Assembly: GCA_964468345.1 (NCBI GenBank)
Contig: CAYXVZ010000025.1
Span: 5,328-69,327, forward strand
Direction of reading: 5' to 3'
DNA length: 64,000 bases
Origin: an uncultured Heliobacteriaceae bacterium
GTDB taxonomy: Bacteria; Acidobacteriota; Blastocatellia; RBC074
Under the pieces are notes generated by a model. It had not been told where the DNA came from, did not search any database, and saw nothing but the letters and a program-made list of their open reading frames with translations. The stretch's first letter is position 1. Each line of letters opens with the position of its first letter. This document shows, piece after piece, positions 6,278 to 62,579 of the stretch. The position numbers and the translations under genes were made by a program.

Positions 6278-6296
6278 GGAGCATGGAGTTGCTTGG

Positions 6297-6610: not shown

Positions 6611-6685
6611 GGGCGCTTGCCATCTTCCCTTGCTCAATGTTTCGAACCACCACTGATGCGGCCGATTGCAAGACGACAAATCAAC

Positions 6686-33491: not shown

Positions 33492-33516
33492 TTCAGAAGT
33501 TGTTGCTGCATCCCGA

Positions 33517-36375
33517 ATGAAAATGGAAGTGACAAATAAATCGACGATACCCGAACTGGTTCACAGGCTGATCGATGCTTATCTTGGGACCGCGAACCAG
33601 GCGGCGGTCCCGAAGGGGGATATCGATTATCCGCTGATGGAGCAGTTCAAACGGGAAGTCGATCAATGGATTCGATCGGACGCGCGCCGCGCGCTGCAGA
33701 TCGCGGAACTGGCCGAGTCGCTTTCGAAAAAGGCGAGCGACCCGCGCGCCCGCGCGCTGGGAGCGCGGATGCGGGCGATGGCGCTGCACGTGCAGAGCCG
33801 ATATGCCGAAGCATTGGAATCTTATGAACAGGCGCGGTCACTCTATGCCGCCGCCGGTTGCGATGTGGATCGGGCGCGCGTGGAGCGCGCGATGGTGGAT
33901 GCCTGCATTTATCTGGGCGGCTATGATGACGCGCTTCGGCTGGCCGAGCAGGCGCGCGAAGTGTTCACGCGGCATCATGAAACGCTGCTGCTGGCGCAGC
34001 TCGAATCGAATGCCGGCAATATTTATCACCGGCTCGATCGCAATCTGGAGGCGCTGGCCTGTTATGACCGCGCCGACCGCGAATTTGCGGCGCTGGATGA
34101 CCGCGACGGCCTGGCCCGCGTTTCCTTCAATCGCGCGAACGTCTATTGCAATCTCGACGATTATCAGCAGGCCGAAATTCTTTACCAGCGCGCTTACGAT
34201 CTGCATACGGAACTGGAAAATCCGACCGGAGCCATGCAGGCCCGCTATAGTCTCGGGTACCTGCATTTTCTCCGCGGCGCTTATCACCAGGCGATGCGAA
34301 TCCTGGCCGAGGTGCGCATCGAGGCGATTCAACTCGGCGACGAACAGACGGCCGCGCTCTGCATTCTGGATCTGGCAGAAATTTACCTGCAGCTCAACGT
34401 GCTCGATGACGCCGCGACGCTCGCGACGGATGCGCGGCGCCTGTTTGAGCGGCTGGAGATGCGTTATGAAGCCGCCCGCGCGCTGACCTTTTTGGGCATT
34501 GCCAGCCTGCGGCAGGAAAAGCTGGCGGATGCGGAGCGCGCTTTCATCGAGGCGCGAAAGGAATTCGAGGCCGAGGGCAACCAGGTTCACCTGGGAATGA
34601 TCAGCCTTCACCAGGCCGAGATGCATCTGTTTCGCGAAGATTGGCTGCAGGCGAAGGCGCTGGCGGCCGAGGCGCGAGAGATATTCGGCCGGCAGCAGTT
34701 GCGCGCCCGCGCGTGCGCGGCGCAGATCGTGGAAGCCCGCGCCCTGCTCGGCAGCGGCGACCGTTCGCGCGAGCAATGCGAAACCATCGAGGCCTTGTGC
34801 GGCGAACTGGATCTGCACTGGCTCAAGGTGCAGGCGCATGAATTGCTCGGCGATGTCGCGCTGGCGGAAGGTCAGGCGGCGAATGCTTATGAGCAATACG
34901 CAGCGTCGATCGCCTGCATCGAACAGATCCGCAGCAGCATTCGCGTCGACGAGTTCCGCAGCGCCTTTTTCCGCGACAAGCTGCGCGTCTATGAAAAACT
35001 AATCAGTCTTTGCCTCGACGAACAAACGCCGCACCGCCAGGCCGAAGCCTTTTATTATCTGGAAGCTTCCAAATCCCGCACGCTCGTCGATCTTCTGGTC
35101 AATGAGATCGGCATGATGCCCGAGGCCGCCAGCCCGCAGGCCGCCGAACTCCATCGCCGCTGGAAAGAGCTTCGCGAAAAGCTGCACTGGCACTACAACA
35201 AAAGCAATCGCATCGAATCGCAGGGAAAAAGCCGTCTGCTCGGCGCCGATGAACGCGCGCGGCATGAGATTGCCTCGTGCGAGCAGGAGCTGTCTGCCCT
35301 GATGCGACAGTTGCAATACCAGGATCCGCATTTCCAGTGGTTGAAAAAACATTCGGGCATCACGGTCGAGGAACTGCGCGGCCTGCTCGATGAGGATGAA
35401 ATCGTCCTCGAGTATTATTTCGATCGGAACCAACTCGAAATCTTCGTGATCGATTGGCATTCGTTGTGCGTCCGGACAGGACCGGTCGATGTGCAAGCCA
35501 TCGGCGAACTGGTCCAAAAGCTTCGCTTCCAACTGAACCGATTCCAATACGGTTCGACCTATGTCGCGGCGCACGCGGCCCGCATGCTCAGGGAAGCGCG
35601 CGAATGCCTTCATCAATTATGGCAGGCCTTGATAGCGCCCGTGGCGGATTTGCTGCGCGAGAGAAAGCTGATCATCGTCCCTTTCGGCGGACTTCACAAC
35701 GTGCCTTTTCAGGCGCTCTATGACGGCGAACGTTATCTGATCGAAACCAATGAGCTGACGCAGATGCCCAGCGCGCAGCTTTTGAAATCCTGCTCCATCC
35801 CGGCGTCGAGGAATTATGAGCATGCCCTGCTCATCGGAGCGGCCGATGAAATTGCGCCCCAGATCACCCAGGAAACCCAGGCCATTCGCAACATCTTTCC
35901 CGAAGCCCGCTGTTTTCTCGGCGAAGAGGCGACCGGCGAGGCGCTGCTGCGGCACGCCGGTGAAAGCGATATTCTTCATATCGCCAGCCATGCCGTCTTC
36001 CGGCAAGACAATCCGATGTTTTCCGCGTTCAAGCTGGCCGATAAATGGCTCAATTTCTATGACATCTGCGGACTGAAACTGCCTGCCTCGCTGGTCACGC
36101 TCAGCGGTTGCAGCACAGGAACGAGCCGGATCTCCGCCGGCGATGAGCTGTTGGGATTGGCCCGCGGTTTTCTCACCGCCGGCGCGGATTCGCTGGTGGT
36201 CAGCTTGTGGGAAGTCGATGACGTCGCGACGGCCCGGCTGATGACCAGCTTTTACCAGCAATTACGATGCGGAAAAAACGCCGCCGCCGCCCTGCGGCGC
36301 GCCGTCATCGAGATCCAGGGAATTCACGAACACCCGTATTATTGGGCCCCGTTCGTGCTGATTTCCCGAATCTGA
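33517..36375 (+). CDS. TPR-repeat / CHAT-domain protein (caspase-like protease)
   Basis: N-terminal ~600 aa of TPR-like repeats. C-terminal CHAT with His/Cys dyad context ..DILHIASHAVFRQDNPMFSAFKL.. and ..LVTLSGCSTGTS.., ending ..HPYYWAPFVLISRI. Track start 33433 is over-extended. Confidence 0.8.
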   Translation: MKMEVTNKSTIPELVHRLIDAYLGTANQAAVPKGDIDYPLMEQFKREVDQWIRSDARRALQIAELAESLSKKASDPRARALGARMRAMALHVQSRYAEALESYEQARSLYAAAGCDVDRARVERAMVDACIYLGGYDDALRLAEQAREVFTRHHETLLLAQLESNAGNIYHRLDRNLEALACYDRADREFAALDDRDGLARVSFNRANVYCNLDDYQQAEILYQRAYDLHTELENPTGAMQARYSLGYLHFLRGAYHQAMRILAEVRIEAIQLGDEQTAALCILDLAEIYLQLNVLDDAATLATDARRLFERLEMRYEAARALTFLGIASLRQEKLADAERAFIEARKEFEAEGNQVHLGMISLHQAEMHLFREDWLQAKALAAEAREIFGRQQLRARACAAQIVEARALLGSGDRSREQCETIEALCGELDLHWLKVQAHELLGDVALAEGQAANAYEQYAASIACIEQIRSSIRVDEFRSAFFRDKLRVYEKLISLCLDEQTPHRQAEAFYYLEASKSRTLVDLLVNEIGMMPEAASPQAAELHRRWKELREKLHWHYNKSNRIESQGKSRLLGADERARHEIASCEQELSALMRQLQYQDPHFQWLKKHSGITVEELRGLLDEDEIVLEYYFDRNQLEIFVIDWHSLCVRTGPVDVQAIGELVQKLRFQLNRFQYGSTYVAAHAARMLREARECLHQLWQALIAPVADLLRERKLIIVPFGGLHNVPFQALYDGERYLIETNELTQMPSAQLLKSCSIPASRNYEHALLIGAADEIAPQITQETQAIRNIFPEARCFLGEEATGEALLRHAGESDILHIASHAVFRQDNPMFSAFKLADKWLNFYDICGLKLPASLVTLSGCSTGTSRISAGDELLGLARGFLTAGADSLVVSLWEVDDVATARLMTSFYQQLRCGKNAAAALRRAVIEIQGIHEHPYYWAPFVLISRI

Positions 36376-36424: not shown

Positions 36425-37666
36425 ATGACACAGAGAATGTTACAGACCTGCTTTCTTCTTGCGATATTCCTTTTCTGGGTTGGATTCAACGAAGCCGGCG
36501 TGAAAACGCTCGCCTCGAAAGGCGCCAAAACTCCTGGCGCGCCGGATAGCTATCGCGCCGGCGAAGTGGTTGTGGGCATGGTTGCCGGCGGAGACGTGCA
36601 GGCGCTGGTCGCCCGGCACGATATGACGATCAAGGACCGCATCCCGGGGACCGATCAATGGTTGTTGGCGACGCCCCGGACGGTCGAGGAAACGCTCACA
36701 CGTCTCGCAACCGAAACCAGCGTGCTTTTCGCGGGGCCAAACAACAACTTTCGTCATGCCGAAATTCGCCAGCGCAGCCAGGCATTCATCGATCAGCGCA
36801 GCCAGGCGTTCATCGATGGCCAGTCGCCGGTCGATTTTTACGGCCAGCCCTCGCTTCCTCGATTGCATCTGGCTGAAGCGCATCAGATCAGCATGGGCTC
36901 CGGCGTTCGCGTCGCCGTGATCGATACCGGCATCGACTTTGCGCATCCGGCCTTCGCGGGACGGATTCTCTCGCCATATTACGATTTTCTCGACAACGAT
37001 CCCGATCCGCAGGAAATGTTGGGAGGCGCCGGCTCGGGCCACGGAACTTTCGTCGCCGGCCTGGTCGCGCTAGCCGCGCCGGGCGCGATGATTATGCCCC
37101 TGCGCGCGTTCGGCCCCGACGGCAGCGGAAACACCTTCGACATCGCCCGCGCCATTCGTTACGCCGCCGATAATGGCGCCCAGATCATCAATATGAGCTT
37201 CGGCCTGCTCGGCCGCGATGCGATGATCGAAGATGCGCTTTCCTATGCCTATGAGCGCGTCTATATGGTTGCGGCGGCGGGGAACGACAACCAGTACGCC
37301 ATTCATTTTCCGGGCGCGCGATCGAGCAAGACGCTCAGCGTGACTTCGACCGATCACCTCGACCTTCGGGCGCCCTTTTCGAATTATCATCGCGATATTC
37401 ATGTTTCCGCGCCGGGCGTCGACCTGTTTAGCGCCTATCCCGGAAAACGCTGGGCGCGTTGGAGCGGCACTTCTTTTTCCACCGCTCTCGTCACGGGCGA
37501 AGCTGCCCTCGTGCTGCGCCTGAATCCTTCGCTCGGCCGCAAGGATCTAAATGAGATTCTCACTAATGCCGGCGTCAATATCGATGGCCTGAATCCCGGT
37601 TTTGCCCGAACCCTCGGCGAGGTCCGCATCGACTTCCTCTCGGCGGTTCGAAGGGCGCGGGAATAA
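36425..37666 (+). CDS. secreted S8-family (subtilisin-like) serine peptidase
   Basis: Signal peptide. Catalytic triad motifs VAVIDTGIDFAHPAF (Asp), GHGTFVAGL (His), GTSFSTALVTGEAAL (Ser). Contains an in-frame 24-nt tandem duplication (IRQRSQAFIDQRSQAFID). Confidence 0.85.
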   Translation: MTQRMLQTCFLLAIFLFWVGFNEAGVKTLASKGAKTPGAPDSYRAGEVVVGMVAGGDVQALVARHDMTIKDRIPGTDQWLLATPRTVEETLTRLATETSVLFAGPNNNFRHAEIRQRSQAFIDQRSQAFIDGQSPVDFYGQPSLPRLHLAEAHQISMGSGVRVAVIDTGIDFAHPAFAGRILSPYYDFLDNDPDPQEMLGGAGSGHGTFVAGLVALAAPGAMIMPLRAFGPDGSGNTFDIARAIRYAADNGAQIINMSFGLLGRDAMIEDALSYAYERVYMVAAAGNDNQYAIHFPGARSSKTLSVTSTDHLDLRAPFSNYHRDIHVSAPGVDLFSAYPGKRWARWSGTSFSTALVTGEAALVLRLNPSLGRKDLNEILTNAGVNIDGLNPGFARTLGEVRIDFLSAVRRARE

Positions 37667-40676: not shown

Positions 40677-40796
40677 CCATTCGTTATTTCCGTCTGTTCC
40701 ATTCTCTCAAGAATTTCTTTGGGTACGGTCCGCACGCTTCGTGCTCTTCGTTTCTTCGTGGTAAAAGCTTTATTCCAAAATTGTTTGCACTGCTTT
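40677..40796. repeat. half-copy of the CACGAAGAR/ACGGAA composite element
   Basis: TTCGTTATTTCCGTCTGTTCC ... CGCTTCGTGCTCTTCGTTTCTTCGTGGTAAAAGCTTTATTCCAAAATTGTTTGCACTG. Collinear with the right half of 50729-50985 and with 55900-55960 (reverse complement). Confidence 0.75.
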
Positions 40797-48742: not shown

Positions 48743-48806
48743 ACCAAGAAGAAACGAAGAACACGAAGCCTTCTCTCCTTCGTGCTCTTCGTTTCTTCGT
48801 GGTTGC
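48743..48806. repeat. CACGAAGAR-nonamer palindrome
   Basis: AACCAAGAAGAAACGAAGAACACGAAG-(12 nt)-CTTCGTGCTCTTCGTTTCTTCGTGGTT. Arms are 3 tandem ~9-mers. Lies between the EamA and Lrp genes. Confidence 0.85.
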
Positions 48807-50728: not shown

Positions 50729-50985
50729 TTCACCACGAAGACACGAAGAGCACAGAGCAGCGAAGCCGCAACCAAATCAATGAAAGAGAGAAACGGAAAT
50801 AACGGAACAGACGGAATAGACAGCCTTTCTCTTTCGTTTATTCCGTTATTTCCGTTTGTTCCGTACTCTCTCTTCTCACAGCGCAAATTTCTTGCTGAAA
50901 ACAAGAAGTTGCTCTTGTGTTTCACGAAGAAGAAAAGAACCACGAGCGCCTTTTTCTTCGTGCTCTTCGTGTCTTCGTGGTGAAT
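50729..50985. repeat. nested composite palindrome: outer CACGAAGAR arms enclosing an inner (AACGGAANAN)x3 palindrome
   Basis: Outer TTCACCACGAAGACACGAAGAGCAC (50729-) pairs with CTTCGTGCTCTTCGTGTCTTCGTGGTGAA (50955-50985). Inner GAAACGGAAATAACGGAACAGACGGAATAGA pairs with TCGTTTATTCCGTTATTTCCGTTTGTTCCGT. Fills the gap between convergent genes. Confidence 0.8.
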
Positions 50986-51965: not shown

Positions 51966-52532
51966 ATGGATGCCACGGATACGACGCAATTGCTCAATCA
52001 ATTTTCGAATGGGGACGCGGAAGCCGCGGGCCGCCTGATTCCGCTTGTCTATGAAGACCTGCGGCAGATGGCGGAGTGGTATATGAAACAGGAGCGCAAG
52101 GGGCATACATTGCAACCGACGGCGCTGGTCAATGAGGTGTATCTGCGGCTGTTTCAAAAGAAGGTCGAATACGCGAGGCGGGAGCATTTTTTCGCCGTGG
52201 CGTCGCAGGTGATGCGTCATCTGCTGGTCGATTACTCCCGGCGGATTCGTGCCGCGCGTCGCCAGGGCGAGCGGCATAAGATATCGCTCGATGAAATTCC
52301 CGATCCGCAACTGCCGGTGCGCGAGGATCTGGTGCGGCTGCACGAAGCCCTCCAGGATTTCGAGCGGCTGCATCCCCGCGCCGGGCGGGTCGTGGAAATG
52401 CGCTTTTTCGGCGGCTTTCACATCGAAGAGATCGCGCAGGCACTCGACACTTCGCCGGCGACGGTCAAGCGGGACTGGGAATTCGCGCAGGCCTGGCTGC
52501 ATCGGTATCTGGCGAATGGAAATCATTCATAG
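51966..52532 (+). CDS. ECF sigma factor, TIGR02999-like (Ser/Thr-kinase-associated type)
   Basis: MDATDTTQLLNQFSNGDAEAAGRLIPLVYEDLRQMAEWYMKQERKGHTLQPTALVNEVYLRLF is the characteristic N-terminus of this family. C-terminal region-4 HTH. Immediately upstream of the STK. Confidence 0.8.
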   Translation: MDATDTTQLLNQFSNGDAEAAGRLIPLVYEDLRQMAEWYMKQERKGHTLQPTALVNEVYLRLFQKKVEYARREHFFAVASQVMRHLLVDYSRRIRAARRQGERHKISLDEIPDPQLPVREDLVRLHEALQDFERLHPRAGRVVEMRFFGGFHIEEIAQALDTSPATVKRDWEFAQAWLHRYLANGNHS

Positions 52533-52552
52533 TCCTTCACGCCTCTGCCACG

Positions 52553-55500
52553 ATGGACAACAACAGAGAACAACAAATCAGAGAGCTGTTCGACGCGGCG
52601 ATCGAGATGCCCTCGGAAGAGCGCGCAATTTATCTTGCGACGGCAACGATGGAAGAATCCTTGCGCGAAGAGGTCCATCGCCTGATCGCATCGAGCAAAG
52701 TCGCGCCCGACTTCCTGAGCCGGGAACGCTGGCTGGGCGGTTTGTTCGGCGGCCTGGAAACAAAGCCGCCAGCTTTGATGGAGGGGCGCCGGATCGGGCC
52801 GTATCAAGTCATCCGGGAACTCGGCGTGGGCGGCATGGGCACGGTGTATCTAGCGCACCGCGCCGATGAGGTGTATGAAAAGCAGGTGGCCATCAAACTG
52901 GTTCGCCCCGATGCGCTGGCGCGTTTTTATCAGGAGCGCCGCATCCTGGCGCGGCTCGAACATCCGAACATCGCGCGCCTGATCGATGGCGGGCAGACGG
53001 ACGATGGCCTGCAATATCTCGTCATGGAGTATGTCGAGGGGCGAACGATTACCGATTACTGCGCGCATCGCCAGCTTTCCCTGCAACAACGATTGCAGCT
53101 CTTCCGCCAGGTCTGCGACGCCGTTCAACACGCCCACCGGAATCTCGTCATCCACCGCGATCTGAAGCCCACCAATATTCTGGTCGATGAGAGCGGCGCG
53201 CCGAAGCTGCTGGATTTCGGCATCGCGAAGCTGGTCGATCCGGAGGAGCAGAGCGAAACGCTGACCCAGGCGGGCATGCTTGCGCTCACGCCCGAATATG
53301 CCAGCCCCGAACAGGTGCGGGGCGAAACGGTCGCGACGACGACGGATGTGTACAGCCTGGGCGTATTGCTCTATGAGCTTTTGACGGGCAGCCGCCCGTA
53401 TCGCATTCAATCGCGTTTTGCGCCGGAGATCATTCGCGCCGTCTGCGAGGAAGAGCCCGAAAAGCCCGGCCTGCGCGTGCCCGCGCTGCGCGGCGATCTC
53501 GAGAACATCATGCTGATGGCGCTGCGCAAGGACGCGGCAGCGCGCTATCAGTCGGTCGAAGAATTCGGCAATGATCTGCGCCGCTATCTCGAAGGAGAAA
53601 TGGTCGCCGCGCGCCCCGCGACGTTTCGCTATCGGGCGGAAAAATACATCAAGCGCAATCGCGCGCTGGTCGCGGCCGGCACGGTCTTGTTTCTCGCTCT
53701 GCTTGTCGGGCTGGGAATCTTGTTCTGGCAGTTGCGGGCTTCCCGTTCGCGCGAACAGGCGCAGCGCCGCGAGCTGTATTCGATTCGCATGATGCAGGCC
53801 AGCAACGACTGGTTCGGCGACAACCCGCGAAGCTATAACGAAATCCTGCAAAGTCCTCCGATCGTGCCGCAGGCGGGCGAAGAAGATTTGCGCGGTTTGG
53901 AATATCAGTATCTATGGCACCTCGGCCATCGGGAGCGCTTCACCTTCGATTCAGTGGATACTGTCGATTTCTCTTACATGAAGGATGAAAGCGGCTACTT
54001 GCTTTCGGTACGAGACAATCGCGAGTTCACGCTCTGGCAGATCCCCTCGGGGAAGCGGATTCTGGTTCGCAACTTTCCTGCCCCGATAGAATGGCGAAAT
54101 TCCATTCCCGCTTCCGGAAATCCTTGCATCATCTATATCGATGACGGTCACGCGCTTATGCGTATGGATTTGCTCGAAGGCACGAAATGGCAAGTGCTGA
54201 GAGATCAGGAAAGCACGTTCACATATTTTGGGGGAATAGAAGGCAAAGAATGGTTAACGGCGGGTCCAAAGGGACGAATCAAACGCTGGGATTGGCGAAC
54301 GGGGCGGTATCTCGGCGCATTTGAAACCGGGATCGACCGCGTGACATATATGGGGCACACCCCGCAGCAAGGTGACCGGGTACTTGTCTTCGGCAACGCC
54401 GGAGAAATCCAGATCTGGGACCCGCCCCGAAACTCCCTCTTGATGACGCTGCCCGCCGGTTCGTTCGCAATATTTGCCGCAACGGTCCACGGATTGCTGG
54501 TGACTCGCCTCGGGAATGGCTCGCTGATCGTTTATGACCTGAAGACATTACGAAAACTGAATTCGCTTTCGCTCCCTGCCTCAGTGGGGGCTGTTGGACT
54601 TTTGCCCAACAAGCAAGTCGCTGCCGCCATTCCAGACGATAATAGTGTGCGCATTTACGATCTGCCTTCCTTGCGGATTCGGCATACGCTTCGCGGCCAT
54701 ACGGAATGGATTAATGCATTTAACGGTTCCAAAAATGGAAAGTGGATCGCGACTGCCAGCAGTGACCGGACGGTGAAACTATGGGATGCCAAAACCTTTG
54801 AAGAACTGGCGACAATTCGTGGACACCTGGACGATGTTTCTCTCGCGTATTTCATCGATCACGCCGGGCACCTGATTTCAAAGAGTGAAAAGACAATAAA
54901 AGTATGGCCTATGTCCGAGGTTCTCCGTCCTGAAGTTGTGCGCGGTCATGCCGGGAAAGTCTTTTCTGTCGCTTTTTCGCCCGACGGAAAGCTGTTGGCC
55001 AGCGCAAATCAGGACCGGACTATTCGCCTGTGGAATCCGGCCACGGGCGCCCTTGTCAATACGCTGACGGGACACCCGGGCCAGATTTTCTGTGTTTCTT
55101 TTTCTCCCGATGGCAAACATCTGGTTTCATCCGGCGAAGGGTCGAAGACGCAACCGGCGGTCGCGGCGCGCACCTGGGATGTGGCAACGGGGAAGGCGCA
55201 ATTCGAATTATGTTGCCATCGTGAGCAGATCCATTTTGCCTCGTACTCGCCCAATGGCAGGATGATTGCGACGGCCAGCGATGACAGGACAATCAAGCTT
55301 TGGGACGCAGTCAGCGGACGCGAACTTCGCAGCCTGGGCGGAGCGCCGCGCGAACTCTGGTCGTTGGCCTTCACGCCCGACGGACGATCGATCGCGGGTG
55401 GAACGGATCGAGGCGAGGTCTTTTTCTGGGATATAGAAACCGGTCGCCTCGAAAAACGAATGCAGGCGCACCCGGGATCGATCTGGTCCATCGCCTTTTC

Positions 55501-55825
55501 GCCCGATGGCCGCACCTGGGCCACCGCCAGCGGAGATGCCACGGCGCGCCTGTGGGATACCGCGACGCGCACGCTCCTTCGCGAATTCAAGGGCCATGCC
55601 GACGGGCTGTTCGAACTCGCCTTCTCGCCCGACGGCACGCGCCTCGCGACCGCCAGCAACGATAAAACCGTGCGTTTCTGGAATGTCGCCACCGGCCATG
55701 CCGTTCTGAACCTGCAAGGCCACACCGCACAGGTCTGGTCCGTCGCCTTCTCGCCCGACGGCCGAACGCTCGCCACCGGCAGTTGGGATCAAACGATCCG
55801 GCTCTATCGCGCGGCGGAGCGATAA
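52553..55825 (+). CDS. Ser/Thr protein kinase with TM segment and C-terminal WD40 beta-propeller repeats
   Basis: Hanks kinase motifs (GGMGTVYLA, VAIK, HRDLKPTNILV, DFGIAK, SPEQ). One TM helix (LVAAGTVLFLALLVGLGILFW). At least 8 WD40 repeats (..SASNDKTVRFWNVATG.., ..GSWDQTIRLY..). Confidence 0.9.
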   Translation: MDNNREQQIRELFDAAIEMPSEERAIYLATATMEESLREEVHRLIASSKVAPDFLSRERWLGGLFGGLETKPPALMEGRRIGPYQVIRELGVGGMGTVYLAHRADEVYEKQVAIKLVRPDALARFYQERRILARLEHPNIARLIDGGQTDDGLQYLVMEYVEGRTITDYCAHRQLSLQQRLQLFRQVCDAVQHAHRNLVIHRDLKPTNILVDESGAPKLLDFGIAKLVDPEEQSETLTQAGMLALTPEYASPEQVRGETVATTTDVYSLGVLLYELLTGSRPYRIQSRFAPEIIRAVCEEEPEKPGLRVPALRGDLENIMLMALRKDAAARYQSVEEFGNDLRRYLEGEMVAARPATFRYRAEKYIKRNRALVAAGTVLFLALLVGLGILFWQLRASRSREQAQRRELYSIRMMQASNDWFGDNPRSYNEILQSPPIVPQAGEEDLRGLEYQYLWHLGHRERFTFDSVDTVDFSYMKDESGYLLSVRDNREFTLWQIPSGKRILVRNFPAPIEWRNSIPASGNPCIIYIDDGHALMRMDLLEGTKWQVLRDQESTFTYFGGIEGKEWLTAGPKGRIKRWDWRTGRYLGAFETGIDRVTYMGHTPQQGDRVLVFGNAGEIQIWDPPRNSLLMTLPAGSFAIFAATVHGLLVTRLGNGSLIVYDLKTLRKLNSLSLPASVGAVGLLPNKQVAAAIPDDNSVRIYDLPSLRIRHTLRGHTEWINAFNGSKNGKWIATASSDRTVKLWDAKTFEELATIRGHLDDVSLAYFIDHAGHLISKSEKTIKVWPMSEVLRPEVVRGHAGKVFSVAFSPDGKLLASANQDRTIRLWNPATGALVNTLTGHPGQIFCVSFSPDGKHLVSSGEGSKTQPAVAARTWDVATGKAQFELCCHREQIHFASYSPNGRMIATASDDRTIKLWDAVSGRELRSLGGAPRELWSLAFTPDGRSIAGGTDRGEVFFWDIETGRLEKRMQAHPGSIWSIAFSPDGRTWATASGDATARLWDTATRTLLREFKGHADGLFELAFSPDGTRLATASNDKTVRFWNVATGHAVLNLQGHTAQVWSVAFSPDGRTLATGSWDQTIRLYRAAER

Positions 55826-55899
55826 GCGATCCAGTCCCTCTCGCTCTCATTCCGCCGCGTTTCCTCTCGGCTTGTGCCTTCCTTGCATGGCTTGATCTA

Positions 55900-56016
55900 G
55901 ATCAGTGCAAACAACTTTGGGACAAAGCTTTTACCACGAAGAAACGAAGAGCACGAAGAAAGACGAAAGAATAAGCCTTCTCTCTTTCTTCGTGCTCTTC
56001 GTTTCTTCGTGGTTGT
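55900..56016. repeat. CACGAAGAR-nonamer palindrome with conserved 5' flank
   Basis: CAGTGCAAACAACTTTGGGACAAAGCTTTT then ACCACGAAGAAACGAAGAGCACGAAGAAAGA-(19 nt)-TCTTTCTTCGTGCTCTTCGTTTCTTCGTGGT, a perfect 31-bp stem. After the STK gene. Confidence 0.85.
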
Positions 56017-56210
56017 GCCTTTCTTCGTTGTCCTGATTTAGTTGTAAAAAATCCAGTGACTGTCCCGGCCGGAGAGGCAATTCAATTTGCCATTAAAATC
56101 GGGTCGGCTATAATCCCCCCGCTTTCGGCGGTCTTTCTTGGCGGAACCTTTGAACAATACAATTCGATACCGTCGCGTGGCCATTCGTTCCGGCGCTCTG
56201 TGATCGAAGC

Positions 56211-56810
56211 GTGGACATGCGGCGGAGTCTTTCTATCTGGCAGCGGAGAATGGCAGACTGGGATCTTTTTTATTCATGGCTGGACCCCAATCCGGAGCGT
56301 GCCGAGGAGGCATATAAGAAGCTTCGCCAGTCGTTGATCAAGTTTTTCACGAAGATGAAACGGCAGGATTGCGAGACGCTTGCGGATGACACCATCGAGC
56401 GCCTCGTGCAGATTCTCTCCAAATCACCCGCGACGCTTTCTATCGATCCTTTTCGCTATGCCGTGGGCGTTGCGCGTTGCATTTCCCTGGAACATTTTCG
56501 AAATCATGTAAAGCCGCGGGCCGAGTTTTCGGACCAGGTGCTGCAGACGCTTGCGCCCGCAACTTCCTCCGCCGAAGCTGAACTTCTCGACCGCTGCCTG
56601 GCTCGTTGCCTGGGCGAACTCGATCGCTCCCGGCGGGACCTCCTGCTCCGGTATTACCACTTCGAGAGGCAGGACAGCAAAAAAATTCGCGATCGAATCG
56701 CCATCGAAATGGGAATCACGATCAATTCGCTGCGGTTGAAGATCATGCGCATCAAGGATGAACTGCGCGACTGCATTTCAGCTTGCCGCGAAGCCGACAC
56801 TGCCGGCTGA
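56211..56810 (+). CDS. divergent sigma-70/ECF-like factor, tentative
   Basis: Region-2-like AEEAYKKLRQSLIKFFTKM..ADDTIERL. Region-4-like ..RRDLLLRYYHFERQDSKKIRDRIAIEMGITINSLRLKIMRIKDELRDCI. Start uncertain (56211, 56217 or 56250). Confidence 0.5.
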   Translation: MDMRRSLSIWQRRMADWDLFYSWLDPNPERAEEAYKKLRQSLIKFFTKMKRQDCETLADDTIERLVQILSKSPATLSIDPFRYAVGVARCISLEHFRNHVKPRAEFSDQVLQTLAPATSSAEAELLDRCLARCLGELDRSRRDLLLRYYHFERQDSKKIRDRIAIEMGITINSLRLKIMRIKDELRDCISACREADTAG

Positions 56811-56908
56811 AAATATTCTTGCAGTTTTCATGAAATTATCCGCCGCATTTCGGCATTAGTGAGTGAATGAAGAGTGCCTGCAAATCGATTGCCTCGGAGC
56901 CATGAGCT

Positions 56909-57928
56909 ATGAATACGCACTCAAGCGAGGAAAACTTATTGCGCCTGTACCTGCTCGGGGCCACGACTTTCGAGGAAGACGAGGAGATCGAGCGACGCCT
57001 CGACGACATCTCGTTGAAAGAGGAGTTGCGGGAAGCGGAAGAGGATTTGATCGACGATTATGCGCGGGGCGTGCTGCCCGGCGATCAACGAATGTTGTTT
57101 GAAATGAACTTCCTCGTGCGGCCGGAGCGACAACAGAAGGTATCGATTGCGCAGGCGGCGGTGCGATATGCGCAATCGCAGCCGCGGTCCGTTCCGGGGA
57201 CTCCCGCTTCGCCCGCGGAGAAGCCCGAGGTGAATGCAGGGGGATGGCTGCGCCGAATGTTTCGCCCCGCATGGGCAATCCCGATCTTTGCGTTGTTGCT
57301 GGTTGGCGTTGGGGCGATGCTCTGGCGGTCCGGAGGCGACCGTTCAGATATCGGCCTCGCAATCAAAGCGATGAATCAGGCCTATCGCGCGCGCCGCCCG
57401 CTGGAAGTCCGTATCTCGGGCCTGGACTACGCGATCTATCCGAAGACGCTTGGAGGAGAAGAACGGCCGATCGAAGCGCCGGCAATCGATCGCGCGGAAC
57501 GAATCCTGCTGGATGAGATGGCCGAGCGCCCAAGTCCGGCGGCGCAGCACGCGCTCGGCCAGGTATATCTGACACAGAAAAAATTCAAAGAGGCCCAGGA
57601 TTTATTTGTCGCGGCCCTGCAGGCGGAACCCGGCAATGCTCGTTTGCTGAGCGATCTCGGCGCGGCCCTCTTTGAACGATGGCTGCGGGAACGCGGGCCG
57701 GGCCAGCCCGCCGCCACGGAAGAATTACGCAGCCAGAGCCTTGAATACTTTACGAAAGCGTTGACGCTGGATGCCAGGCTGCTCGACGCCCGTTTCAATC
57801 GCGCACTGCTCTATCAATATTCCGGCCAGACGGAGTCGGCGCGCGCCGAATGGCAGCTTTATCTGAAAGAAGACTCGGACTCCCCTTGGTCGAAAGAAGC
57901 TGAAATCAATCTCAGATCCCTGAAGTAG
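56909..57928 (+). CDS. putative membrane anti-sigma factor with TPR sensor domain
   Basis: Acidic N-terminal region (LYLLGATTFEEDEEIERRLDD..), one TM helix (WAIPIFALLLVGVGAMLW), extracytoplasmic TPR region. Directly downstream of the sigma-like gene. Confidence 0.5.
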   Translation: MNTHSSEENLLRLYLLGATTFEEDEEIERRLDDISLKEELREAEEDLIDDYARGVLPGDQRMLFEMNFLVRPERQQKVSIAQAAVRYAQSQPRSVPGTPASPAEKPEVNAGGWLRRMFRPAWAIPIFALLLVGVGAMLWRSGGDRSDIGLAIKAMNQAYRARRPLEVRISGLDYAIYPKTLGGEERPIEAPAIDRAERILLDEMAERPSPAAQHALGQVYLTQKKFKEAQDLFVAALQAEPGNARLLSDLGAALFERWLRERGPGQPAATEELRSQSLEYFTKALTLDARLLDARFNRALLYQYSGQTESARAEWQLYLKEDSDSPWSKEAEINLRSLK

Positions 57929-57963
57929 TTTTTTATCTCGCATCGAAAACGAGGAACGATACC

Positions 57964-60900
57964 GTGGCTGTGAAAGGCGATCGGAAAGCTCGCCGGATTC
58001 GCAGGCAGAAGCTCGTGTTTTTCCCGCGGAGCCGGAAACAACTCGTGCCGCTTATTCTCTTGGCCGTGCCCGCCCTTTTGGCCGCGGGCGCCTGTCATCT
58101 CGGGCGACCCTCGTCCACGGAGGAGGGAATGACGGCGCTTGTGAATGCCTTTCGGTTGCAGCGCCCGCTCGATTCGCGGATCAGCGGTTTCGACTATGCT
58201 CCGCGGCTGGAGACGCGCGGGAATGCCGATGCCGGAGCGGACAAAGCGGCCTGGAACCGGGCGGAACGCCTGTTGCTCGATGCAGAGGCGGAACATCCCG
58301 GCGCGGCCGCTTCGCATGCCCTCGGCCGGATGTATCTCGCAAAAAGGGACTTCGAGACCGCGATCAAACAGTTCGAGATCGCGATGAAGGCCGGGCCCGC
58401 AACGGCTGCGCTGTATTGCGATCTGGGCGTTGCGATGTTGGAGCAAACGCTCGCCCATCCCGCGTGGCGGGAATCCGGGGCGGAGGTCGAACGGCTCTCC
58501 ATGGTTTTGGAACGCTTCGATCAGGCGCTGGCCCTGGCTCCCACCATGCCGGAGGCATTGTTCAATCGCGCGCTTCTCTATGAACATCTGTCGCTGCCGC
58601 AACGCGCCCGCGAAGGCTGGCAATCGTATCTCGCGCTGGATGCCGCTTCGCCGTGGGCGGAGGAAGCCCGCCGAAATTTGCGGCGACTGGAAAGCGCGGA
58701 GCCGCCGGCCCCGGCGCCTTCCACCCAACTGGTCGAGGATCTCGGAAACGCCATGCAGGCCAGAGACGACGAACGCGCATGGCGAATCATCAGTCAAAAT
58801 CGCGATCGGATCGGCAGCGTTGCCGCCGGCACAGTGGTCGAAGCTTTTAAGGAAGCCTGCGACCGCGGGGACGCCGCGCGGGCCGGGCAATTGTTGAACG
58901 CACTGCGCTATGCAGGCGACGTCGAGAACCGGCTTGCGGGCGATCGCTTCATCACGGACCTTGCGGCCTATTACAAACGCTCCGGCGCTCATCCGAAAGC
59001 GTCTTTGGCCAAAGGCCGCGCCGCGCTCAAGGCCGGTTTGGGATGGCTGAAAGCGCTGGATCTCGATCGGGCGAGAGAGTCCTTATTGCAGGCGAAACAG
59101 CTTTTCGCGCAAAGCGGCGATCTCATGGAATCGTTGCAAGCCGATTTCCTGCTGGCGGGCTGTTATCGCAAGCAGGCCGAATTGCCGGCGCGCGCGGCCA
59201 TCTATGACCGCATGGCGCAGGTCTGCCGGAAATCGCAATACAAATGGCTCTTGATGCAGGTCCTGCTCGAACAGGCTTCTCTCGAAGGCGGGCTGGCCAA
59301 TTACTCCAATGTCATCGAGCGCAGCCGCGAAGCGCGCGAGATTGCGAAGGCGATCGACGACCGCAGCGGATGGGCTTCGTCCCTGTTGCAGGGCGCCGAG
59401 GCGCTCTTTTATATGGGGAATCACCATGAATCGCTGCGGCTCTATTACGAAGGGATTTCCATGACCAATCAGCGGCCGGCGAGCCTGTGGGTGCGCTGGG
59501 CGCTCAATATGTGCACCGCCTTTCCGCTGAATGCGCTGGGAAGAACGACCGCGGCCGCCGCGTATCAGCAGGAATCGCTCCGGCTGGCCCGTCTCATCAA
59601 CAGTCCGAAACAGATCGGCCTGTCCCATGTTCATCTGAGCTGGACCCATGCCTTTCAGCGGCGTTTTGACGAAGCGATGCAACAGGCGCAACAGGCGCGC
59701 GATTATGCGCAGAGCATTCCCGAGGGCGATGTGCGCAGGGAATTGCTCGCGCTCGCTTCGCTGCGCCTCGGGCAGCTCTTTGCCCAGCGCGGCGATTTTA
59801 TACGGGCCGGGGAATATTTCGATCAATCCCTGGGTTTATACGACGGACTGAATTCGCAGGAAGCCTTTCGATATAGCGCGCAGAAAGGGAAATTGATCGC
59901 GGCCCTCGCGCGGGGCGAATCCGCCGGCATGGAATCGCAGATTGCCACGGTCGTCGAGCTGTACGAAAAGTTCCGCGGCAAGATTCGCGAGGAATCCTCT
60001 CGAAACAGTTTCTTCGACGGCGAACAGAGCATCTACGATATCGCTATCGACTTCTGGTATGCGCAAAAGCGCGATGAACGGGGAGCGTTTGAATTGTCCG
60101 AACGTTGCCAGGCGCGCTCGCTGCTGGATGCCGTCAGCACGGGTCCGATCGAAATCGAGGAAGCCGGCGCGCCTGATCTGGCCTACAAAGAGGTCGCGGC
60201 TTCGTTGTCGTTGGCCGAGATCGAAGCGCGCCTGCCGCCCAAAGCCCAGATCGTGCAATATGCGGTGCTTAAGGACCGGCTGTTGCTCTATGTGCTCTCG
60301 CCGGGGCGGCGCCTGGTCGTTCGCGAACAAAAAATTTCCGCGCAGGAACTCCATCGACAAATTGCATCTTATTTGGAGCAGCTTACGCGGCGACCGCAGC
60401 CCGGCGAGTCCTTTCAACCGGAGCCCGCGCAGCGCCTCTATCAATCCTTGATCGAACCCGTCGCGGATCTGCTCGACCGGCAGAAACAGCTTTGCATCGT
60501 GCCGGATAAGGCGCTCAATCAGCTTCCCTTCGCCGCGTTGCTTGCGCCAGAGACCGGGCGCTTTCTGATCGAAGATTTCGCCCTGGTTTTCGCCCCCAGC
60601 GCGACCATGTTCATCCTCGGCTCTGAGATCGCCGCGGCAAAAGCCGGCGTTCGCGCCGAACAGTTGTTGAGCGTCGGCAATCCAGCTTTCGATCGAGATC
60701 TGTTTTCGCAGGAGTATCTGGATCCGGCTGAACAGGAGGCCCGCTCCATCGCGGACCTGTACATACGTCCCCGGCGGCTCTTGGGACCGGAAGCCACGCG
60801 CGATCGCTTTGTGCGGGATCTGGATCAGGTCGATGTGTTGCACATGGCCGTTCACGGCCTGGTCGATGAACGATCTCCCATGCGTTCGAAGCTGCTGCTG

Positions 60901-61302
60901 GCCAAAAGCGGGCCGGGGCCTTCCGCCTCCGAGGCGCAGGCGGGCGCTCTGTTCGTGCATGAAATCTATCGTTTGCCGCTCGCGCGCCTGCGGCTGGTCG
61001 TGCTCGCCGCCTGCCGCTCCGGCGTCGAACGTTATTACGGCGGCGAAGGCATGATCGGCATCTCGCGTCCCTTTCTCGCGAAAAAAGTTCCTCTCGTCGT
61101 CGCCGGCCTCTGGGATGCTTTTTCGCCCGCCACCCGGGAATTGATGATCGGCCTTCATCAAGGGAGAAAGACGAATCGACTCGCGACCGCCGATGCGCTC
61201 CGGCAGTCGCAATTGAAAATGCTGCACGATCCGAGCGCGCTTTATCGCCACCCGCATTACTGGGCGGCCTTCGAATGCATCGGCGGTTACGCGGAGTTTT
61301 GA
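57964..61302 (+). CDS. membrane-anchored TPR-repeat / CHAT-domain protein (caspase-like protease)
   Basis: N-terminal basic segment plus a TM helix (LVPLILLAVPALLAAGA). Residues ~60-250 are paralogous to the sensor domain of 56909..57928 (RISGxDYA, NRAERLLLD, HALGxxYL, LFNRALLY, SPWxxEAxxNLR). C-terminal CHAT (..VLHMAVHGLV.., ..LVVLAACRSGVE.., ..HPHYWAAFECIGGY). Confidence 0.8.
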   Translation: MAVKGDRKARRIRRQKLVFFPRSRKQLVPLILLAVPALLAAGACHLGRPSSTEEGMTALVNAFRLQRPLDSRISGFDYAPRLETRGNADAGADKAAWNRAERLLLDAEAEHPGAAASHALGRMYLAKRDFETAIKQFEIAMKAGPATAALYCDLGVAMLEQTLAHPAWRESGAEVERLSMVLERFDQALALAPTMPEALFNRALLYEHLSLPQRAREGWQSYLALDAASPWAEEARRNLRRLESAEPPAPAPSTQLVEDLGNAMQARDDERAWRIISQNRDRIGSVAAGTVVEAFKEACDRGDAARAGQLLNALRYAGDVENRLAGDRFITDLAAYYKRSGAHPKASLAKGRAALKAGLGWLKALDLDRARESLLQAKQLFAQSGDLMESLQADFLLAGCYRKQAELPARAAIYDRMAQVCRKSQYKWLLMQVLLEQASLEGGLANYSNVIERSREAREIAKAIDDRSGWASSLLQGAEALFYMGNHHESLRLYYEGISMTNQRPASLWVRWALNMCTAFPLNALGRTTAAAAYQQESLRLARLINSPKQIGLSHVHLSWTHAFQRRFDEAMQQAQQARDYAQSIPEGDVRRELLALASLRLGQLFAQRGDFIRAGEYFDQSLGLYDGLNSQEAFRYSAQKGKLIAALARGESAGMESQIATVVELYEKFRGKIREESSRNSFFDGEQSIYDIAIDFWYAQKRDERGAFELSERCQARSLLDAVSTGPIEIEEAGAPDLAYKEVAASLSLAEIEARLPPKAQIVQYAVLKDRLLLYVLSPGRRLVVREQKISAQELHRQIASYLEQLTRRPQPGESFQPEPAQRLYQSLIEPVADLLDRQKQLCIVPDKALNQLPFAALLAPETGRFLIEDFALVFAPSATMFILGSEIAAAKAGVRAEQLLSVGNPAFDRDLFSQEYLDPAEQEARSIADLYIRPRRLLGPEATRDRFVRDLDQVDVLHMAVHGLVDERSPMRSKLLLAKSGPGPSASEAQAGALFVHEIYRLPLARLRLVVLAACRSGVERYYGGEGMIGISRPFLAKKVPLVVAGLWDAFSPATRELMIGLHQGRKTNRLATADALRQSQLKMLHDPSALYRHPHYWAAFECIGGYAEF

Positions 61303-61359
61303 GCCATTACAAAACTTCGAATTGATAAGAACACGAAAAACAATGATCTGAGGAAAACT

Positions 61360-62199
61360 ATGAGCAGCTTATTTGAGTTGAAAAAAGAAATAACAGCCAG
61401 TCCACATGTCAGTTTTCACTTTGAAGGAGTCATCGCACTGGGGGTTCGAGATAACAGCAATCGCTTCGATGCGGGAATCATCAAGGATCCAAATAACGAA
61501 GGGGAAGTTGAAAAACATATTCGGTCCATTACTGTTACCAAAGTGCTTAAACAGGAACGCACAGTATTGATCTCAATGAGTGGAATGAGAGGAGATGAGT
61601 TGGTGCTTGATTTCAAAGAGATAAATCCAGGACGAATCAACCTATTTGAGGGCAAGAAGAACCCATTCGATGTAATCAACGCTTTCAAATGGGTGATCGA
61701 TGTCGAAAAGCACATGCATAACAATAATAGAGTTAAGGTCGTAGACTCTGCGCTTCGCACTGTTCTTCGCGTACTAAATACCCCTGACACACTGTTTTAT
61801 GCTGACGATGTGGTTACAGATCCCATCCCTACGGAAGAAGAGAATGGGTCGAAATTGTCTAATATTGATGCTTCTGCTGAATGTATAAAGGCTCTTGTGC
61901 CTTTGAGGCGTACCCTATTTCTCAAGAAAAAAGTGTCTGATGGACGATTTATCGACTTGTGTGAATTGAATGTTGAGGACGATGTTCGGTACGAGATCGT
62001 TTTCAAAAATTCCTGCAATCCGATTGAATGTGAAGATGAAGATATTGATGTGGCTCCGATCTATAACAATTTGATTGGGAAGCCGAGCGGTGCAAGTCTG
62101 CGTCGCATCTTCAAAGTGAAAGCAAGACTTACTCCAGCGTCCCAGTGTGCGCCTATTAACTTCGGTGTATCCGGAGAATTGCCTGATCCGGCAAGTTGA
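61360..62199 (+). CDS. hypothetical protein, compositionally foreign (~43% GC), no recognisable domain
   Basis: Clean 279-codon ORF immediately after the TPR-CHAT gene. Codon usage is AT-biased, unlike all neighbours. No motif I can assign. Confidence 0.6.
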   Translation: MSSLFELKKEITASPHVSFHFEGVIALGVRDNSNRFDAGIIKDPNNEGEVEKHIRSITVTKVLKQERTVLISMSGMRGDELVLDFKEINPGRINLFEGKKNPFDVINAFKWVIDVEKHMHNNNRVKVVDSALRTVLRVLNTPDTLFYADDVVTDPIPTEEENGSKLSNIDASAECIKALVPLRRTLFLKKKVSDGRFIDLCELNVEDDVRYEIVFKNSCNPIECEDEDIDVAPIYNNLIGKPSGASLRRIFKVKARLTPASQCAPINFGVSGELPDPAS

Positions 62200-62579
62200 T
62201 CGCTTATCGAAGGAATCCCCCAATGGGGACTGGTTTTCTACATTCCTCCGTCTCAGCACCCAAACGGTGCTGAGACGGGGTAGCAGCGGCTGAGGACGTT
62301 GATGGAAACTGTGGGGAGCGCCTCTTCCCGCGAAGGCGTCCATTCGCTAGCCGAAGCCCGCCTTCCTCGAAGCATCAAAATTGTTCTGAAAATTTTCTCT
62401 CCCGCCTACATATGATGAGATCGCAAAAAAATTTCAGCCGATCGAAAAAGTTTTTTTGCGCTCCGCCCGCCTGCAAACCGAGCTTTATAAAATTCGTGAC
62501 CATCCGAGAGGCGCAAGAGTCTTACCCATGACTGAAAAATTCGGTTTCGGACAGGGAACTTCAATTGTGGAGAAGAGAG

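Follow-up and report, generated by a model that had tools for sequence, protein, structure and literature searches.

The locus and its genes

We have analysed a gene cluster in a stretch of 64,000 nucleotides (hereafter the window; positions 5,328 to 69,327 of the forward strand of contig CAYXVZ010000025.1, GenBank assembly GCA_964468345.1) from an uncultured bacterium deposited under Heliobacteriaceae and placed by GTDB in the Acidobacteriota (Blastocatellia, RBC074). All positions below are those of the window. As an initial annotation of the sequence had described, the cluster contains six open reading frames (ORFs), all of which are present on the + strand (Table 1), although the first of them is longer than was stated there. 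The initial annotation had treated the six genes as a single 10-kb signalling island. According to our analyses, they should instead be divided into two modules. The first consists of a sigma factor gene of the extracytoplasmic function (ECF) type and a Ser/Thr kinase gene. The second is a cassette of four genes, which encode a divergent ECF sigma factor, a membrane anti-sigma factor, a membrane-anchored protein with tetratricopeptide repeats (TPR) and a caspase-like CHAT domain (the CHAT protein), and a protein that we call orf6. The best explanation for the stretch from 56087 to 62229 is that it constitutes one four-gene operon, which is a split version of the DdvS/DdvA signalling system of Myxococcus xanthus.

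Table 1 Features of the two modules in the window. TM, transmembrane; X and X', the two copies of the shared domain described in the text; REP, repetitive extragenic palindrome.
Feature	Position	Strand	Remarks
ECF43-type sigma factor, module 1, 215 aa	51885..52532	+	Alternative start 51966 = Met28
Hanks-type Ser/Thr kinase-TM-WD40 protein, module 1, 1090 aa	52553..55825	+	Pkinase and WD40 matches, TM helix
Perfect 31-bp inverted repeat, REP-like, between the modules	55933..56013	no strand	19-nt loop
Sigma70-type promoter-like site TTGCCA-16-TATAAT, 5' of the cassette	56087..56114	+	11/12 consensus positions
Cassette gene 1 (199 aa), a divergent ECF sigma factor placed like DdvS	56211..56810	+	Family-level sigma matches
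Cassette gene 2, anti-sigma factor, 339 aa, whole gene	56909..57928	+	
Anti-sigma cytoplasmic domain, residues 1-112, zinc-less	56909..57244	+	PF13490 at family level; aligns with N-termini of fused proteins
Anti-sigma TM helix, residues 117-142	57257..57334	+	Hydropathy; more basic N-terminal flank
Domain X, anti-sigma residues 152-339, predicted periplasmic	57362..57925	+	Gapless 43% identity to X'
Cassette gene 3, 1112 aa (GTG start), membrane-anchored X'-scaffold-TPR-CHAT protein	57964..61302	+	
CHAT-protein membrane anchor, residues 25-48, with basic cytoplasmic tail before it	58036..58107	+	
Domain X', CHAT-protein residues 56-243, paralogue of X	58129..58692	+	
CHAT (caspase-like) domain, residues 820-1107	60421..61284	+	PF12770, E 1.3e-57
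Putative catalytic His964 and Cys1017	60853-60855 and 61012-61014	+	
Cassette gene 4, orf6, 279 aa, beta-rich	61360..62199	+	Conserved same-position gene in other loci
Terminator-like hairpin 3' of orf6	62216..62229	+	

The anti-sigma factor and the CHAT protein carry paralogous domains

When the anti-sigma factor is compared with the CHAT protein by BLASTP, residues 152-339 of the former align with residues 56-243 of the latter in one collinear and gapless block, in which 81 of 188 positions are identical (43%, E 1e-38). Every other segment has an E value of 0.22 or worse, and the shared block opens with ~45 residues that do not resemble TPRs. This indicates specific paralogy rather than the generic similarity between TPR proteins. 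We name the shared block X in the anti-sigma factor and X' in the CHAT protein. The initial annotation had already claimed that residues ~60-250 of the CHAT protein are paralogous to the putative sensor of its neighbour, and had proposed a pairwise alignment and a topology prediction as the means to check it. The alignment bears the claim out, with conserved blocks in collinear order, and each of the five motifs that had been cited is found in both proteins (anti-sigma/CHAT protein: RISGLDYA/RISGFDYA, DRAERILLD/NRAERLLLD, HALGQVYL/HALGRMYL, RFNRALLY/LFNRALLY and SPWSKEAEINLR/SPWAEEARRNLR). The paralogy was seen in all six loci that were first examined, at 36-47% identity, and often reaches into the TM helix.

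The topology prediction points in the same direction. By hydropathy each protein has a single TM helix (anti-sigma residues 117-142, CHAT-protein residues 25-48), and in both proteins the N-terminal flank of the helix is the more basic one; for the CHAT protein this flank has six Lys/Arg and no acidic residue at all. Since such flanks imply that the N-terminus is inside, X and X' are both predicted to lie outside the cytoplasm, that is, in the same compartment, the periplasm. The anti-sigma protein terminates where X terminates, and its periplasmic part is only ~190 residues long.

X' holds a conserved juxtamembrane motif, AYRxQRPxExRISGFxYAP...TRG. Two arginines in it are invariant, and X and X' both retain the motif, so that it is also found on the protease. 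The loop that follows TRG (CHAT-protein residues 86-89, 58219-58230) is the sole low-confidence stretch within the X' part of the structure model described below (predicted local distance difference test, pLDDT, < 50). It is exposed, variable in length and located where DdvA has its linker, and the anti-sigma factor has an equivalent loop at residues ~185-195; speculatively, it may be regarded as a candidate cleavage site. We also considered the sequence LLAAGAC of the CHAT protein as a lipoprotein site and have rejected it, as the orthologues have no Cys there and instead show a TM helix ending in WWW.

The CHAT protein corresponds to the scaffold and protease part of DdvA

The initial annotation had described the third product of the cassette as a 1112-aa membrane-anchored TPR-CHAT protein, and this description holds (PF12770, 1.3e-57; TM helix 25-48). 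The putative catalytic residues His964 and Cys1017 are invariant in all 45 aligned sequences and in 85 of the 85 units (defined below) that have this region. The AlphaFold2 model of the protein is of high confidence (pLDDT 88.6, pTM 0.84). In a Foldseek search with this model, the best matches are the DdvA structures 8rw5 and 8rot_A (E 1.4e-20 and 9e-20), with TM-scores of 0.64-0.66 over ~1080 alignment columns, i.e., over the whole chain. DdvA is well ahead of Craspase Csx29, which reaches a TM-score of only 0.39, and of the separases. At the sequence level, the identity to DdvA is only 17%, and single-sequence searches of the Protein Data Bank (PDB) returned nothing but designed TPR proteins for the CHAT protein and nothing useful for the cassette sigma factor; profiles were needed to reach the matches to DdvA and to sigma-E. 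The family profile matches the DdvA sequence with an E value of 9.1e-19, and its best stretch places the X region on DdvA residues 89-287, which comprise the end of the TM helix, the linker, the stem and the start of the midrib helix.

For the interpretation of this match, the published architecture of DdvA is essential (PMC11506125). In DdvA, a zinc anti-sigma domain and a TM helix (71-92) are joined through a flexible linker (95-143) to a scaffold, which is followed by a TPR region (368-701) and a CHAT domain (702-991). The scaffold is further divided into the stem helices a5-a11, a long midrib helix (267-304) and a tip. In the cryo-electron microscopy (cryo-EM) structure it is a periplasmic homodimer, where the stems line the interface and each active site faces the linker of the partner (PMC11506125). 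Thus X corresponds to the membrane-proximal linker and the stem of the DdvA scaffold. Because this region lines the dimer interface of DdvA, a role of X in pairing would be at least as likely as a role in ligand sensing. In the window proteins, by analogy with the cryo-EM description, the scaffold stems may likewise mediate dimerisation, and the active site may be directed at the partner's linker.

The resemblance to DdvS/DdvA (PDB 8rot, 8rw5; PMC11506125, PMC6061681) extends to the organisation of the genes. An ECF sigma gene is directly upstream in both systems, and the layout is shared, running from the cytoplasmic anti-sigma domain, which is assigned here at the family level, through a single TM helix to the periplasmic scaffold, TPR and CHAT, though here it is spread over two proteins. 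The His/Cys dyad is conserved, and the same logic is proposed, with CHAT as the site-1 protease ahead of RseP. On the other hand, there are several clear differences. Unlike in DdvA, the anti-sigma factor and the protease of the window are separate chains, and a TM helix and a copy of X are found in each. The anti-sigma factor of the window has no CHCC zinc site, while the cassette sigma factor has two conserved CxxxC pairs. The linker between the TM helix and X is short and highly conserved here, whereas that of DdvA is long and flexible. Finally, no CBASS or CRISPR genes are adjacent; instead a conserved orf6-like gene follows, and the lineage is Acidobacteriota. As for the control of an anti-phage island, as with DdvA, the sole conserved neighbour is orf6, which has no PADLOC match, and the flanking genes vary between loci.

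A comparable arrangement is known from the type III-E Craspase (protease Csx29, substrate Csx30 and sigma factor RpoE/CASP-sigma; PDB 8eey; PMC10028731), where the gene of a TPR-CHAT protease also stands beside those of a sigma factor and of a protein that restrains it. The protease and the substrate of Craspase are separate polypeptides and cleavage occurs in trans; here the polypeptides are also separate and cleavage in trans is proposed. The cassette sigma factor even shows a faint match to the CAS_III-E sigma model (E 0.0064). However, Craspase is cytoplasmic, RNA-guided and associated with Cas7-11, whereas the window system is membrane-anchored, predicted to be periplasmic and lacks a CRISPR locus, and cas genes were found in none of the conserved neighbourhoods examined.

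The cassette sigma factor and its anti-sigma factor

The initial annotation had called the first gene of the cassette divergent and sigma-like, and it can now be described as a divergent ECF sigma factor. Pfam gives no sigma match for the window copy. Its match to TIGR02989 has an E value of 1.3e-13 with 51 bits (cut-off 124.6), and that to TIGR02937 one of 2.4e-5 with 24 bits (cut-off 42.9). Among 36 members of its family, Sigma70_r4_2 is recognised in 22 and Sigma70_r2 in 6, and the family profile matches the ECF sigma factor sigma-E (2q1z) over the full length at 3e-5. That is, the evidence from sequence profiles is convincing for the family, while the single protein stays under the curated thresholds. 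In the C-terminal half of the family there are two conserved CxxxC pairs, of which C128, C132 and C187 are invariant and C191 is kept in >=90% (n=36); the protein may carry a metal or redox site. The sigma gene ends 98 nt ahead of the anti-sigma start.

For the anti-sigma factor, the assignment likewise comes from the family. PF13490 (zf-HC2) is matched by 33 of its 37 members, with a best E value of 2e-7; a profile of the anti-sigma domain retrieved no anti-sigma structure from the PDB. The family consensus has no conserved Cys or His, and residues 1-112 of the window protein contain a single His (His4) and no Cys. The initial annotation had described a membrane anti-sigma factor with a TPR sensor. 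Of this description the anti-sigma part is retained, and for the presumed sensor, X, pairing would be at least as likely a function as sensing.

Fused relatives point to a probable history of gene fission

Two size classes can be distinguished among the full-length homologues of the CHAT protein. Members of the short class have ~1082-1113 aa and their TM helix at ~20-45, as in the window; those of the long class have ~1160-1270 aa and the helix at ~100-160. Over its entire length (1-339), the anti-sigma factor of the window can be aligned in collinear order with the first ~340 residues of the long class, at ~29-41% identity and with E values down to 1e-69. This identifies the long class as fusions of the DdvA type, in which the anti-sigma domain (ASD) is followed by TM, X, TPR and CHAT in one chain. 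These fused proteins of Acidobacteriota (Blastocatellia, Pyrinomonadaceae; e.g., P0026-P0081 and the loci L010-L087) are 32-42% identical to the window CHAT protein over its full length, and share with the window cassette the sigma family upstream and the orf6-like gene downstream. They differ in having one polypeptide, a single TM helix and a single X, whereas the window has a split gene and two copies of TM-X.

We have found 333 relatives in species-representative genomes, and the best 80 of these 333 are all from Acidobacteriota, mainly Blastocatellia/Pyrinomonadaceae. Hidden Markov models (HMMs) were built for each part of the proteins and 86 units were annotated with them, giving 67 fused units, 11 split units (with two X domains), 7 orphans and one frameshifted unit. 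The same sigma family is encoded directly upstream of 65 of the 67 fused units and of 10 of the 11 split units. In a library of 1.84 billion representatives, X is detected at E <= 1e-30 in 973 proteins (50%-identity clusters); among the best 150 matches to X, 143 were newly retrieved, including 93 fused proteins, 16 stand-alone ASD-TM-X proteins and 3 TM-X-TPR-CHAT proteins without ASD. Thus there are hundreds of fused DdvA-type homologues in Acidobacteriota, contrary to the published distribution, in which anti-sigma factors like DdvA (N-terminal zinc-binding ASD and periplasmic TPR-CHAT) are reported only from Myxococcota and one Comamonas (PMC11506125). The homologues of Acidobacteriota were probably missed there because their anti-sigma domains have no zinc ligands and score weakly.

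Neighbour-joining trees with bootstrap show how the split forms are related to the fused ones. In the tree of the TPR-CHAT part, nine split loci including the window form one clade (99/100), and split forms sit among fused forms. Within the split clade, the X copies of the anti-sigma factors (Xa) form a clade in 300 of 300 replicates, and those of the CHAT proteins (Xc) in 220 of 300. The identity between Xa and Xc is 43% for pairs from the same locus vs 42% for pairs from different loci. Since same-locus pairs are no closer than cross-locus pairs, the two copies should derive from one old duplication without recent gene conversion. The two copies are about equally conserved, with a mean identity of 52% for Xa-Xa and 54% for Xc-Xc. 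Two further split loci, L005 and L076, fall outside the nine-locus clade and beside fused sisters, which suggests independent fissions, and additional split loci (L088, L090-L092) were found from other seeds.

Considering that DdvA of Myxococcota is fused too, and that split forms lie among fused ones, the simplest history would be fission of a fused gene, e.g., by tandem duplication and complementary loss. The initial annotation had proposed that the protease captured a duplicate of its neighbour's sensor domain. This is the less simple account: 67 of the 86 units are fused and the split forms are nested among them, so that the anti-sigma factor would be the split-off N-terminus of a DdvA-like protein and not the donor of a sensor. 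In addition, TM-X was kept on both products each time, which argues that both halves need X.

Several members depart from the fused and split layouts. P0146 (1574 aa, from the library of representatives) was considered as an unsplit intermediate with tandem X domains and was rejected, as it has only one X behind an unrelated cytoplasmic N-terminus of ~475 residues. In this protein, the unrelated region replaces the anti-sigma domain and is followed by TM-X-TPR-CHAT, which suggests that the periplasmic module can couple to other cytoplasmic outputs. The orphan TM-X-TPR-CHAT genes, with no sigma factor or anti-sigma domain nearby, are those of L021, L027, L043, L047, L058, L061 and L083. As for the source organisms, three metagenome-assembled genomes (MAGs; L009, L015 and L061) are labelled 'uncultured Heliomicrobium sp.', whereas the loci come otherwise only from Acidobacteriota; these loci are Blastocatellia-like with ~50% identity to the window, and the labels are probably wrong.

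The orf6 gene is a conserved companion of the CHAT gene

The last ORF of the cluster had been regarded as foreign in the initial annotation. Its implied odd composition is real, with a GC content of 0.43 compared with ~0.60 in the neighbours. However, orf6 is a conserved member of the cassette. All core loci have it in this place, and in all loci examined its GC content is below that of the adjacent genes. The counterparts at this position in L003 and L001 share 42% and 32% identity with it, respectively. By iterated profile search, an orf6-like gene lies directly 3' of the CHAT gene in all 61 fused units with enough sequence, in 10 of 11 split units and in 6 of 7 orphan units, and when three orf6 homologues were used as starting points, the same cassette was recovered around each. 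As 6 of the 7 orphan CHAT genes have it, the link of orf6 is to the CHAT protein and not to the sigma factor. This link between orf6 and the CHAT gene is the most robust new association of our analysis.

In the core loci, orf6 starts 13-95 nt past the CHAT stop codon with a strong Shine-Dalgarno sequence, and in the window there is no terminator-like site between the two genes. We infer that orf6 is a co-transcribed output or partner of the system. Sequences of the orf6 family diverge strongly; Gly23, His53 and Cys263 are invariant, and a signal peptide is not evident. Profile searches of Pfam, NCBIfam, PADLOC and PDB gave no match, and a Foldseek search against viral structures returned nothing at E <= 0.001 with a model of modest confidence (pLDDT 59). 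In eleven loci a tandem pair of orf6-like genes is found 3' of the fused anti-sigma/CHAT gene (L020, L029, L042, L049, L051, L059, L060, L065, L078, L081 and L087). In L001, from a Blastocatellia MAG, an insertion sequence (IS) element with a DDE_Tnp_1 transposase lies between the CHAT gene and orf6 (5845-6885 of that locus), by which orf6 is cut off from the operon.

The ECF43-kinase pair and other features of the window

The two genes upstream of the cassette form an independent and already known module, in agreement with the initial annotation, which had recognised a known sigma-kinase pairing. The sigma factor belongs to the ECF43 type (TIGR02999, 1.4e-58, 197.8 bits against a cut-off of 126; PF07638, 1.3e-51). 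ECF43 sigma factors have the acidic motif of sigma2.2 replaced by a Thr-containing motif with the consensus QTTA (PMC13147305), and in the window protein QPTA stands in the place of this phospho-acceptor motif (residues 77-80). The kinase gene starts 20 nt past the sigma stop codon, and its product has a Pkinase domain (residues 84-286, 3.6e-46), a TM helix (369-397) and WD40 repeats with a combined E value of 1.6e-83. The pair has no cognate anti-sigma factor. ECF43 sigma factors are known targets of Hanks-type kinases, as in EcfP/PknT and EcfK/PknS (PMC8999054, PMC13147305). The window pair resembles these in the TIGR02999-type sigma factor, the QPTA in sigma2.2 and the TM Ser/Thr kinase encoded directly after it, and differs in that the extracytoplasmic domain of the kinase consists of WD40 propeller(s).

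The association of this pair with the cassette is not conserved. An ECF43 sigma gene is near the cassette in only 1 of ~83 other loci and kinase genes in only 6, with varying positions and strands, and the flanking genes of the cassette differ in every locus. Between the kinase gene and the cassette there are the 31-bp palindrome and then the sigma70-type promoter-like site (Table 1). Sites of this kind are enriched 5' of the cassette sigma gene (13 of 75 loci vs 0.18 expected), at 60-91 nt from the start codon. Two recurrent k-mers, TAACTCA and CATTCGA, were considered as an ECF promoter and rejected, since they are coding sequence of the sigma N-terminus. The arm of the REP-like palindrome, CACGAAGAAACGAAGAGCACGAAG, occurs 7 times in the window, where none would be expected by chance, with further copies at 40737-40760, 48745-48801 (48745/48778) and 50734-50979 (50734/50956).

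The window also encodes a second TPR-CHAT protein together with two further genes, at 33433-36375, 36425-37666 and 29502-32135. This protein (980 aa, CHAT 5e-65) has no X domain and is unrelated to the one of the cassette. It adjoins a subtilase (Peptidase_S8), and a gene for an outer-membrane protein like TonB-dependent receptors lies upstream. The region is probably what the initial annotation had counted as a first module.

Proposed mechanism and alternative explanations

Based on the above analyses, we propose the following mechanism for the cassette. In the resting state, the anti-sigma factor would hold the sigma factor at the membrane, and its X and the X' of the CHAT protein would form a pair, in the manner of the stems of the DdvA homodimer. 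An envelope signal of unspecified nature would activate the CHAT protease, which would cut the periplasmic part of the anti-sigma factor in trans with His964/Cys1017, as the site-1 cleavage. An RseP-type site-2 protease would then cut within the membrane, and the sigma factor would be released. The model follows the proposal of the DdvA authors that CHAT acts by autoproteolysis in trans as site-1 cleavage before RseP (PMC11506125). Since the anti-sigma factor and the protease are separate polypeptides, any action of the protease on the anti-sigma factor must be between separate proteins. The architectural part of the model is near certain. The best reading of the architecture, by analogy with DdvA, is that the anti-sigma factor and the CHAT protein would interact, and the chances that cleavage in trans follows are about even. 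Taken as a whole, i.e., a split DdvA-type operon with X-X' pairing and trans cleavage of the anti-sigma factor, the model appears somewhat better than an even bet.

Several observations weigh against parts of this model. For DdvA itself, trans cleavage is unproven, the mutants of the dyad are wild-type-like, and no inducing signal is known (PMC11506125). The pairing of X with X' would have a single precedent, namely the DdvA homodimer. A profile of the first ~85 residues of X, which include the juxtamembrane motif, fails to retrieve DdvA, and the equivalence of the linkers is therefore positional and not sequence-based. The presence of this motif on both copies also fits a structural or binding role better than a cleavage site, which only the substrate would need. 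The window anti-sigma factor scores below the cut-off of PF13490 (E 0.013, 16 bits against 22.2 bits), and its domain is without the CHCC zinc site of DdvA. As to regulation, no autoregulatory promoter motif of the ECF type was found, a systematic bipartite search giving only the sigma70-type motif, and no target genes of the cassette sigma factor were found. Finally, among the presumed independent fissions, L005 has a truncated CHAT gene, which weakens its placement in the tree.

Among the alternatives, it is conceivable that the CHAT protein never cuts the anti-sigma factor and acts as a steric shield, which is bound through X-X' and protects the anti-sigma factor from a general site-1/site-2 protease, until upon a signal it dissociates or cuts itself. 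This would agree with the findings that the bulky TPR-CHAT part of DdvA blocks RseP, that its removal suffices for RseP-dependent degradation of DdvA in M. xanthus, and that the dyad mutants have no phenotype at rest (PMC11506125). The stand-alone anti-sigma factor, with its periplasmic part of ~190 residues, might also not block RseP without a partner. On the other hand, the His/Cys dyad is unchanged in 85 of 85 units, which speaks for a catalytic role, though the substrate could be the CHAT protein itself, and overall we regard the shield as rather unlikely. If instead X and X' were parallel sensors, in line with the option of the initial annotation that the two proteins read the same signal, each would bind the same periplasmic signal, and the anti-sigma factor and the protease would be regulated without contact. 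The similar purifying selection on both copies is compatible with this, a ligand pocket could be built from the strongly conserved non-TPR motif and its pair of invariant arginines, peptide binding is common among TPR-like domains, and signal sensing by the periplasmic region is also proposed by the DdvA authors (PMC11506125). However, the homologous region of DdvA lines the dimer interface, with no ligand site shown there (PMC11506125), and the 67 fused relatives manage both functions with one X in a single chain. Moreover, X was kept on both halves in at least two or three lineages, which is easier to understand if the halves need X to meet. Parallel sensing is thus unlikely in our view.

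The remaining two explanations can be given little weight. If the six genes were one pathway, in which the kinase-WD40 protein phosphorylates the second sigma factor or the anti-sigma factor, the adjacency of the genes on the same strand would be accounted for, as would the upstream kinase gene of one other split locus (L071). Yet this is very unlikely given how rarely and irregularly ECF43 sigma and kinase genes occur near the cassette, the differing flanking genes, the palindrome and the separate promoter between the modules, and the fact that ECF43 sigma factors themselves are the known kinase targets (PMC8999054, PMC13147305). The anti-sigma gene and the ASD-less CHAT gene could also be functionally unrelated remnants of a tandem duplication on the way to loss, since adjacent paralogous units are frequent in loci of the family (L026, L028, L040, L045, L051 and L079). 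Against this, no fewer than nine loci of one clade, and several others, have the intact four-gene order with open reading frames, the X copies are conserved at ~52-54% within each class, and the dyad is intact, so that decay appears extremely improbable. We therefore retain the split DdvA-type operon with X-X' pairing and cleavage in trans as the working model.

Implications for DdvA-type signalling

Systems of the DdvA kind are already known, and the window cassette is not categorically new, and its mechanism is a proposal. In this work, we have extended them from Myxococcota to a large family of Acidobacteriota. What is new, in addition, is a conserved membrane-proximal domain, X, that is retained on both products in repeated gene fissions, and an uncharacterised family, orf6, that accompanies nearly every member, including those without a sigma factor. 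Going one step further, it might be supposed that DdvA-type proteases recognise the anti-sigma factor in trans by homotypic pairing of X, that they form a large undescribed acidobacterial family, and that orf6 is an effector or a regulator of the protease; this generalisation as a whole is tentative, and we consider it rather less probable than its opposite.

The trans-cleavage proposal for DdvA has stayed unproven because no inducing signal is known and the substrate and the enzyme are one protein. Here the substrate, i.e., the anti-sigma factor, and the enzyme, i.e., the CHAT protein, are encoded by separate genes, and the trans model is therefore directly testable. The findings are relevant to ECF sigma factors, to regulated proteolysis and to the caspase-like proteases of bacteria. 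If recognition in trans through the pairing of X is true, the split cassette would be a natural separation-of-function experiment.

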